Source of the DNA: a virus
Taxonomy: Duplodnaviria > Heunggongvirae > Uroviricota > Caudoviricetes
IMG/VR virus record: IMGVR_UViG_2609460344_000008
Length of the DNA: 23,647 nucleotides
Reading direction: 5' to 3' (one strand)
Numbering within the stretch: the first letter of the stretch is position 1; every line of letters starts with the position of its first letter. Positions 17,092 through 17,191 of this stretch are shown piece after piece. Below the pieces are notes generated by a model, which saw only the letters and a list, made by a program, of their open reading frames with translations, was not told the DNA's origin and did not search any database. A program made the position numbers and the translations under genes.

Positions 17092-17191
17092 TGCACGCTG
17101 TGCGTAGCTACACAGTGTAGGCAAAAAATTTTTGACTTTAAATAAACACGGTGTAGTATTTAGTTATCACGGTGTAGCAAGTGAGGTGGAA
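17092..17191. promoter_or_regulatory. Divergent promoter/operator region: imperfect palindrome TGCGTAGCTACACA (17101..17114); three CAC(A/G)GTGTAG repeats (17111..17120, 17148..17157, 17168..17177); candidate rightward promoter TTGACT (17132..17137), 16-nt spacer, TAGTAT (17154..17159)
   Basis: Seen in sequence between divergently oriented RHH repressor genes. Confidence 0.5.

Follow-up and report, generated by a model that had tools for sequence, protein, structure and literature searches.

In the 23,647-nt stretch of DNA of a tailed virus (Caudoviricetes) held as IMG/VR record IMGVR_UViG_2609460344_000008, hereafter the window, two small genes for ribbon-helix-helix (RHH) proteins diverge from a short intergenic region that carries several copies of one sequence motif. 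This arrangement raises the question of whether the repeats are operators, which DNA unit would be recognised and by which of the two proteins. Judged from the comparison of sequences, the repeats are very probably the operators of a secondary immunity switch of the phage P22 immI type, and the recognition unit would be the 13-bp palindrome CTACAC-N-GTGTAG. The initial annotation of this DNA had read the layout as RHH operators overlapping back-to-back promoters between a mnt-like and an arc-like gene, a proposal that agrees with all the computational tests described here, binding itself being a prediction.

The divergent gap is 109 bp long, and not 100 bp as initially given. It holds all three of the CAC(A/G)GTGTAG copies that had been noticed (17111-17120, 17147-17156 and 17168-17177, with start-to-start distances of 36 and 21 bp), and no further copy occurs on either strand of the window; the mean in dinucleotide shuffles is 0.04 copies, and three are reached in 0 of 100 shuffles. 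Moreover, the four GTGTAG hexamers of the window all fall within the same 70 bp (17108-17177), and in the closest E. coli prophage, of which 40.5 kb were scanned, the motif is confined to the gap between the mnt-like and arc-like genes. The first copy in fact belongs to a perfect 13-bp palindrome, CTACAC-A-GTGTAG, of which it forms the right arm. This palindrome, absent from the initial annotation and invariant in every relative, is here called O1; the sites around the second and third copies, O2 and O3 (Table 1), keep both the right arm and the inner CAC-N-GTG. Apart from these three, a scan of the window for the CTACAC-N-GTGTAG palindrome found no site with fewer than three mismatches, and an unbiased repeat search of the gap returned a single repeat family that is not A/T-rich.

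The position of the sites with respect to transcription signals is equally specific. The rightward, Pant-like promoter is the only sigma-70 match in the region and also the best match to a simple sigma-70 position weight matrix (PWM), which recovers the annotated Pant and Pmnt promoters of P22; the choice of TAGTAT as its -10 is borne out by both. Two repeat copies had been described as lying about 20 bp apart and bracketing this hexamer. The spacing is indeed 21 bp, and O3 lies beyond the -10 on its far side, where it starts 8 nt downstream of the hexamer and spans approximately +1 to +11 of the transcript, whereas O2 does not flank the hexamer but covers the promoter spacer and the first 3 nt of the -10 itself.

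Cassettes with Mnt-like proteins of 65-98% identity were gathered from Escherichia, Salmonella, Serratia, Tatumella and metagenomic viral contigs, the scan of genome contigs contributing one useful locus, from Tatumella. Nine non-redundant class-A gaps and one class-D gap were aligned, and the identities in Table 1 are pairwise means over the nine class-A gaps. Conservation of the repeats in related cassettes, which the initial annotation had put forward as a check, is what the alignment displays: O1 is unchanged throughout, in class D as well, and the cores of O2 and O3 follow closely. In particular, the O3 core is a conserved island amid variable flanks, with the Mnt-like proteins of these cassettes sharing only 65-82% identity. 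The central base of O2 and O3 varies (G, C or A) and both inner arms stay constant, and this combination is the signature of a palindromic protein site. The geometry is also maintained, as the O1-O2 centre-to-centre distance is 36 bp (35 in one locus) in 16 of 16 loci, distant ones included, and the O2-O3 distance is 21 bp in every two-repressor cassette that retains O3. An RHH gene always adjoins O1, whose central A is kept in the 16 loci.

A fourth site, O0, is possible to the left of O1. In the window it is only tentative because of its degeneracy (Table 1). Relatives match the consensus at this position at 11/12 (L051, CTACACCGTGTAA), 11/12 (L064) and 8/12 (L026), always with an O0-O1 distance of 18 bp where O0 can be recognised, namely in these three loci, and PhiR12_1 carries CTGCACGCTGTAG there. 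Separately, one near-identical cassette, IMGVR_UViG_2675903606_000016, has an altered O2 (CACGGTATAG), a -35 that reads TCGACT, a changed A tract and an Arg-to-His change in the ribbon of its Arc-like protein (PLGIHIP), and looks like a decaying or derepressed variant.

Table 1. Features of the control region and of the surrounding module, with conservation among related cassettes where it was calculated (mean pairwise identity; invariant positions over all positions).
Feature	Position	Strand	Description	Identity	Invariant
Porin gene, 378 aa	14208..15344	+	OmpC-type; Porin_1, E 3e-142		
Tail gene L	15543..16241		Phage_tail_L		
ClpP-like gene, 178 aa	16298..16834	-	Pfam CLP_protease, E 2.2e-11		
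Mnt-like RHH repressor gene, 82 aa	16834..17082	-	Pfam Arc, E 6e-8; N-terminus MKGARDISPLGIRIP		
Divergent control region	17083..17191	none	109 bp; from open reading frame coordinates and sequence		
Candidate O0 (fourth site)	17091..17103	none	CTGCAC-G-CTGTGC; 8/12 to consensus; 17 bp from O1	0.60	
GTAGCTAC palindrome	17101..17114	none	TGCGTAG/CTACACA; 8-bp perfect core; left half of O1 abutting variable flank		
Left half of GTAGCTAC palindrome	17104..17107	none	GTAG	0.53	0/4
O1	17108..17120	none	Perfect 13-bp palindrome CTACAC-A-GTGTAG; predicted operator over leftward -10	1.00	13/13
Candidate leftward promoter	17114..17142	-	-35 TTTAAA (17142-17137), 17-bp spacer, -10 TACACT (17119-17114)		
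A/T palindrome	17122..17134	none	CAAAAA-A-TTTTTG; upstream of and overlapping rightward -35		
Rightward Pant-like promoter	17132..17159	+	TTGACT, 16-bp spacer, TAGTAT		
Rightward -35 hexamer		+	TTGACT	1.00	6/6
O2	17144..17156	none	AAACAC-G-GTGTAG; 10/12 to consensus; positional equivalent of P22 Oarc	0.92 (core)	8/10 (core)
O3 left flank				0.44	0/3
O3	17165..17177	none	TATCAC-G-GTGTAG; 9/12 to consensus; positional equivalent of P22 Omnt	0.86 (core)	6/10 (core)
O3 right flank				0.40	0/14
Arc-like RHH repressor gene, 46 aa	17192..17332	+	Pfam Arc, E 5e-13		
sar-type antisense RNA	17327..17392	-	Rfam RF00262, full length; 67.6 bits (gathering 43), E 2.6e-13		
Antirepressor Ant gene, 309 aa	17394..18323	+	KilA-N N-terminal domain and P22_AR_C (E 3.8e-29)		
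K-type gene	18339..19115		JAB/NlpC		

The motif also follows the N-terminus of the neighbouring RHH proteins, and the association runs in both directions. RHH proteins retrieved by protein comparison that bear the signature R-x-I-x-P-x-G-x-R all have the motif beside their genes. From the DNA side, a scan of IMG/VR with the pattern CTACACNGTGTAG-N20-32-CACNGTGTA returned 23 loci (9 new, 6 distinct), and the new ones, nine out of nine, adjoin an Arc-family RHH gene whose product starts with R-[DNSE]-I-x-P-x-G-x-R; these proteins are otherwise very different, with differing C-termini, and in some of the loci a lone RHH gene is present and the arc-ant pair is missing. The motif is absent from cassettes with the same flanks and other RHH N-termini (classes B, C, E and F, L035/L036, Emek and P22), which have repeats of their own at the O1 and O2 positions. 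Class B, for example, whose N-termini read SPTTVRIP and SKILVRMP, has an inverted pair GATAGCAAAGTG / CACTTTGCTATC and GTATTC twice. For Arc and Mnt themselves, passages of PMC3413123 that cite Knight and Sauer 1989 attribute specificity to a short N-terminal region.

Two further observations belong here. In some of the IMG/VR loci (L056/L060, L059 and L064), CTACAC-N-GTGTAG sites spaced by 36 bp flank a TTGAC(T/C) promoter beside single, longer RHH genes (MSRDIAPFGLRM...), with neighbours that are not arc-ant and of which one is weakly Cox-like; the operator-promoter unit is therefore older and wider than immI. Class B, in turn, is the commoner immI allele of E. coli (L004, L007, L008 and L027-L033, for instance E. 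coli HS13-1 and phage phiv205-1), with the GATAGCAAAGTG inverted pair at the O1 and O2 positions and the two GTATTC copies at the O0 and O3 positions; its two repressors have different ribbons, as would fit a pair of operator specificities like that of P22.

The genes on both sides of the gap complete the picture. The assignment of the 82-aa and 46-aa products to the RHH family holds, as both match Pfam Arc (PF03869) at 32.8 and 49.1 bits, respectively, against a cut-off of 20.4, with the ribbon and both helices covered, and their matches among proteins of known structure are Mnt, Arc and AmrZ. Residues 4-74 of the Mnt-like protein align with residues 1-75 of P22 Mnt (PDB 1mnt) over almost the full length (E 4.8e-5), its C-terminal extension being a homologue of the region through which Mnt oligomerises, and its N-terminal segment ARDISPLGIRIP pairs without gaps with the ARDDPHFNFRMP of P22. 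The Arc-like protein has a helical scaffold nearest to Arc and an N-terminus that aligns with Mnt residues 2-12. Downstream of the arc-like gene, in its transcription unit, lies the gene for Ant, which also matches the anti-repressor families of PHROG. On the opposite strand, a sar-type antisense RNA with its own terminator (17331-17362 in a terminator scan) faces both the junction of arc with ant and the ribosome binding site of ant, in a region 92-95% identical to P22 and epsilon34; the initial annotation makes no mention of this RNA. The homology of all its parts (Mnt-like, Arc-like, sar and Ant) makes this locus a complete module of the P22 immI type.

It should be noted that the best PHROG matches of both RHH proteins, phrog_2685 and phrog_795, and P22 Mnt itself in RefSeq NC_002371.2 are named 'partition protein ATPase', which looks like a propagated misannotation of a transcriptional repressor. 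In addition, the N-terminal domain of Ant is P22_AR_N or Bro-N in P22 and several sister cassettes and KilA-N here; the domains of Ant are therefore shuffled within one module.

Transcription towards the mnt-like gene is less clearly marked. The combination TTTAAA-17-TACACT is the top minus-strand PWM match, with a score of 9.0, and its -10 lies inside O1. Read along the rightward promoter's strand, O1 has an A at its centre without exception, which makes the repressor-gene strand TACACT; this invariant centre, set against the variable centres of O2 and O3, fits TACACT as the -10 of the repressor gene. A face-to-face leftward promoter of the P22 kind was considered and rejected, since the equivalent hexamers, AACTAA and TTTAAA, score poorly and the PWM favours TTTAAA-17-TACACT. 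The leftward promoter is a candidate because its -35 is weak and variable. Upstream of the rightward -35, and overlapping it, lies an A/T palindrome, which is kept across immI classes A, B and C with their different repressors and therefore is no specificity site; it is probably a promoter, UP-like or bending element common to the divergent promoters.

On this basis, the working of the switch can be proposed. In the lysogen, the leftward gene would produce the Mnt-like RHH repressor, a tetramer by homology with P22 Mnt, which would occupy O2 (over the spacer and the -10) and O3 (over the start site) and shut off the rightward promoter that drives the arc-like and antirepressor genes. As O1 carries the candidate -10 of the repressor gene, its occupancy would give negative autoregulation. 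Upon infection, or upon loss of the Mnt-like protein, the rightward promoter would fire, and the Arc-like protein, first product of the transcript, would rebind the same sites and limit Ant to a burst, with sar RNA additionally blocking ant translation. The Ant protein would then inactivate primary prophage repressors.

Such a scheme has both repressors reading the same sites, and an indication of this lies in the proteins. The N-terminal segments of the two are near identical (RDI-x-PLGIRIP): by our own count, identity is about 86% over 14 N-terminal residues versus about 38% in the helices, and BLASTP aligns the two proteins with 57% identity over 35 aa. The segment is near identical in both proteins in all class-A cassettes and in the distant pairs L051, L052 and L054. 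Recent gene conversion was rejected as the source of the likeness, since 5 of the 11 identical residues use different codons; in other words, the shared N-terminus is selected rather than recent. From these near-identical recognition segments we infer that both repressors would read one operator family, a shared specificity to which we give roughly even odds. The same even balance applies to the fuller proposal, namely a single-specificity immI switch in which the Mnt-like and Arc-like proteins would compete for, or co-occupy, one operator family at fixed 18-36-21 bp spacing, with a TACACT half-site supplying the repressor -10, the unit being reused by single-RHH regulators in unrelated phages. 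The locus offers one ribbon/operator pair in which Pro stands at the position of His6 of P22 Mnt, and a His6-to-Pro change in Mnt reportedly alters its specificity.

At the DNA level, inverted repeats join the starts of the two RHH genes, covering about 15 codons and the ribosome-binding regions (17042-17070 with 17201-17229, 29 nt, 79%, and 17076-17085 with 17189-17198, 10 nt, 100%). A quasi-palindrome encoding one DNA-recognition segment therefore frames the whole control region.

The strongest competitor is that only the Mnt-like tetramer would read CTACAC-N-GTGTAG and that the Arc-like protein would have a separate target, for example 17122-17134 or O0. P22 provides the precedent, since its Arc and Mnt have separate operators, and the class B and C alleles have two repeat families each; besides, the helices diverge to the degree given above, and the N-terminal arms of the two repressors differ at positions 3-4 (G-A versus V). 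Against this division of labour stand the recognition segment, nearly identical in both proteins throughout class A and in the three distant pairs, the presence in the gap of one non-A/T repeat family only, and the persistence of the A/T palindrome in alleles whose repressors differ, which rules it out as a specificity site. Altogether we consider a separate Arc-like target unlikely.

The explanation by operators, and by one shared specificity in particular, also has to face several points that weigh against it. The left halves of O2 and O3 are poor (10/12 and 9/12), and the 36 bp between O1 and O2, about 3.4 helical turns, put these two sites out of phase, so that simple cooperative binding is not obvious. 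The leftward promoter is weak, with 8 of 12 consensus positions, a PWM score of 9.0 and a -35 that is not conserved; furthermore, the block from O1 to the -10 is conserved as a whole, and operator and promoter constraints are therefore not fully separable there. Sequence similarity is the sole ground for the shared specificity, and the Arc and Mnt of Emek likewise share a Q-N-R ribbon face. Finally, a literature search for the motif as an operator matched only unrelated primer sequences.

That the 14-bp palindrome centred on GTAGCTAC, which the initial annotation had put forward, is itself an operator appears very improbable. The palindrome exists, with its perfect 8-bp core, and sits in the 5' region of the leftward gene; it is neither significant nor conserved. 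An equally good one arises in 6.6% of shuffled gaps, and no column of its left half is invariant, the sequence becoming ATTG, TTCG, ACTG or TTAA in relatives that keep O1-O3. It is judged incidental and outside the system, the recognition unit being CTACAC-N-GTGTAG.

More remote still is the possibility that the repeats are the remnant of a 21-bp tandem promoter duplication, or that they pair as a hairpin, in RNA or DNA, with an action on late transcripts that read through. A 19-nt direct repeat (D2) of 79% identity with 21-bp spacing would suit the former and the pairing of O1 with O2 and O3 as inverted repeats the latter, but the O3 core is conserved and the remainder of the 21-bp unit is not, folding predictions for the two strands do not surpass those for shuffles (z = -1.57 on both), and the motif follows the protein signature across unrelated contexts. 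As remote is the binding of another factor, LexA or the KilA-N domain of Ant: LexA controls antirepressors of the Gifsy and SPC32H type, the KilA-N fold binds DNA and CTGT-N8-ACAC at 17098-17113 resembles a LexA box, but this string, placed upstream of the promoter, lacks the ACAG arm of the CTGT-N8-ACAG box, has a GC-rich spacer and lies in non-conserved flank, and the motif is also found where Ant has P22_AR_N or Bro-N and in loci without ant.

With the operators of an immI-type switch as the favoured explanation, the comparison with P22 becomes instructive. In P22 immI (mnt - Pmnt/Pant with Oarc and Omnt - arc - sar - ant), as in the present locus, Mnt-type and Arc-type RHH genes diverge, arc comes first in the ant operon, sar has its terminator and Ant carries P22_AR_C. 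Counted from the first base of the -35, the centres of O2 and O3 are at +18 and +39 and those of Oarc and Omnt at +15 and +40, and O3 shares with Omnt (AGGTCCACGGTGGACCT) the core CACGGTG. There are also differences. The window has three (perhaps four) sites of one family, one of them, the perfect palindrome O1, being additional and placed upstream of the -35, whereas P22 has one Oarc and one Omnt. The gap is 109 bp rather than 90 bp, and the promoters are probably back to back here, unlike the fully overlapping, face-to-face pair of P22. As the chief deviation, both repressors here share almost the same recognition segment, whereas P22 Arc and Mnt read different operators, and Pro and Gly take the places of His6 and Asn8 of P22 Mnt. 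Moreover, Ant has KilA-N and not P22_AR_N, and a ClpP-like gene follows the mnt-like gene. A single operator family in place of two is a difference in wiring, not in kind.

Other immI alleles, from P22-like prophages of E. coli and Salmonella (the phiv205-1, EC.P3 and HS13-1 type, and Emek), share with this one the ClpP-like gene, the conserved C-terminus of Mnt, sar and ant. Their A/T tract and TTGACT -35 are also the same, and repeats occupy the O1 and O2 positions; these alleles differ in their RHH N-termini and in the repeats themselves, and are separate specificity alleles. The locus is an uncharacterised specificity allele of the well-known P22 immI system. The likeness to other autoregulated RHH repressors (Arc, Mnt, CopG, MetJ, ParG and AmrZ) is a general mechanistic analogy only: as described in PMC3413123, RHH proteins, as dimers or tetramers, place a two-stranded beta ribbon in the major groove at short repeats lying over promoter elements, and regularly spaced arrays of sites are typical of these repressors.

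The ClpP-like gene lies downstream of the mnt-like gene with a 1-nt overlap and is probably part of its leftward operon. It appears to be co-transcribed with the repressor, and its expression is accordingly expected in the lysogen. Its product matches the models of ClpP-related head maturation proteases weakly, all far below cut-off. In other cassettes the same position is taken by unrelated small open reading frames, a SieA-like gene or HicAB.

In P22-like phages the equivalent of this immI cassette is known as the 'ant moron' (Villafane et al. 2008, PMC2629481), which varies greatly among them (PMC2629481, PMC8022706). In the window it is inserted in a lambda-like tail operon, between the Phage_tail_L gene and the K-type JAB/NlpC gene, the setting being that of a lambda-like siphovirus, here an E. 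coli prophage, whereas P22-like podoviruses have the module between gene 16 and the tailspike gene; other genomes carry this same cassette at that canonical position beside the tailspike gene. The L-cassette-K arrangement occurs in 13 of 5426 complete E. coli genomes, and over the cassette stretch the window is 99.8% identical to E. coli TOE17. The tail operon contains a second moron, an OmpC-type porin gene inserted between the tail genes M and L. Lastly, a cassette with a truncated ant is carried by a 4452-bp circular 'plasmid' in the assembly of a chicken E. coli (NZ_CP148432.1, pZ1323CEC0013_1-6), a record that could reflect either an artefact of assembly or a fragment that was excised.

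Current understanding of immI is not overturned by this allele, which documents the intact movement of the P22 'ant moron' into a lambda-like tail operon and yields precise operator predictions in terms of three sites, their arms and their spacing. The pairs of repressor N-termini and operators form a comparative set for how RHH proteins choose their DNA, and, if the single-specificity proposal is true, the immI alleles would be a natural allelic series of ribbon/operator pairs from which the RHH recognition code could be read. Through antirepressor modules one prophage can induce others or override them, so it is control regions of this kind that decide switching in polylysogens.

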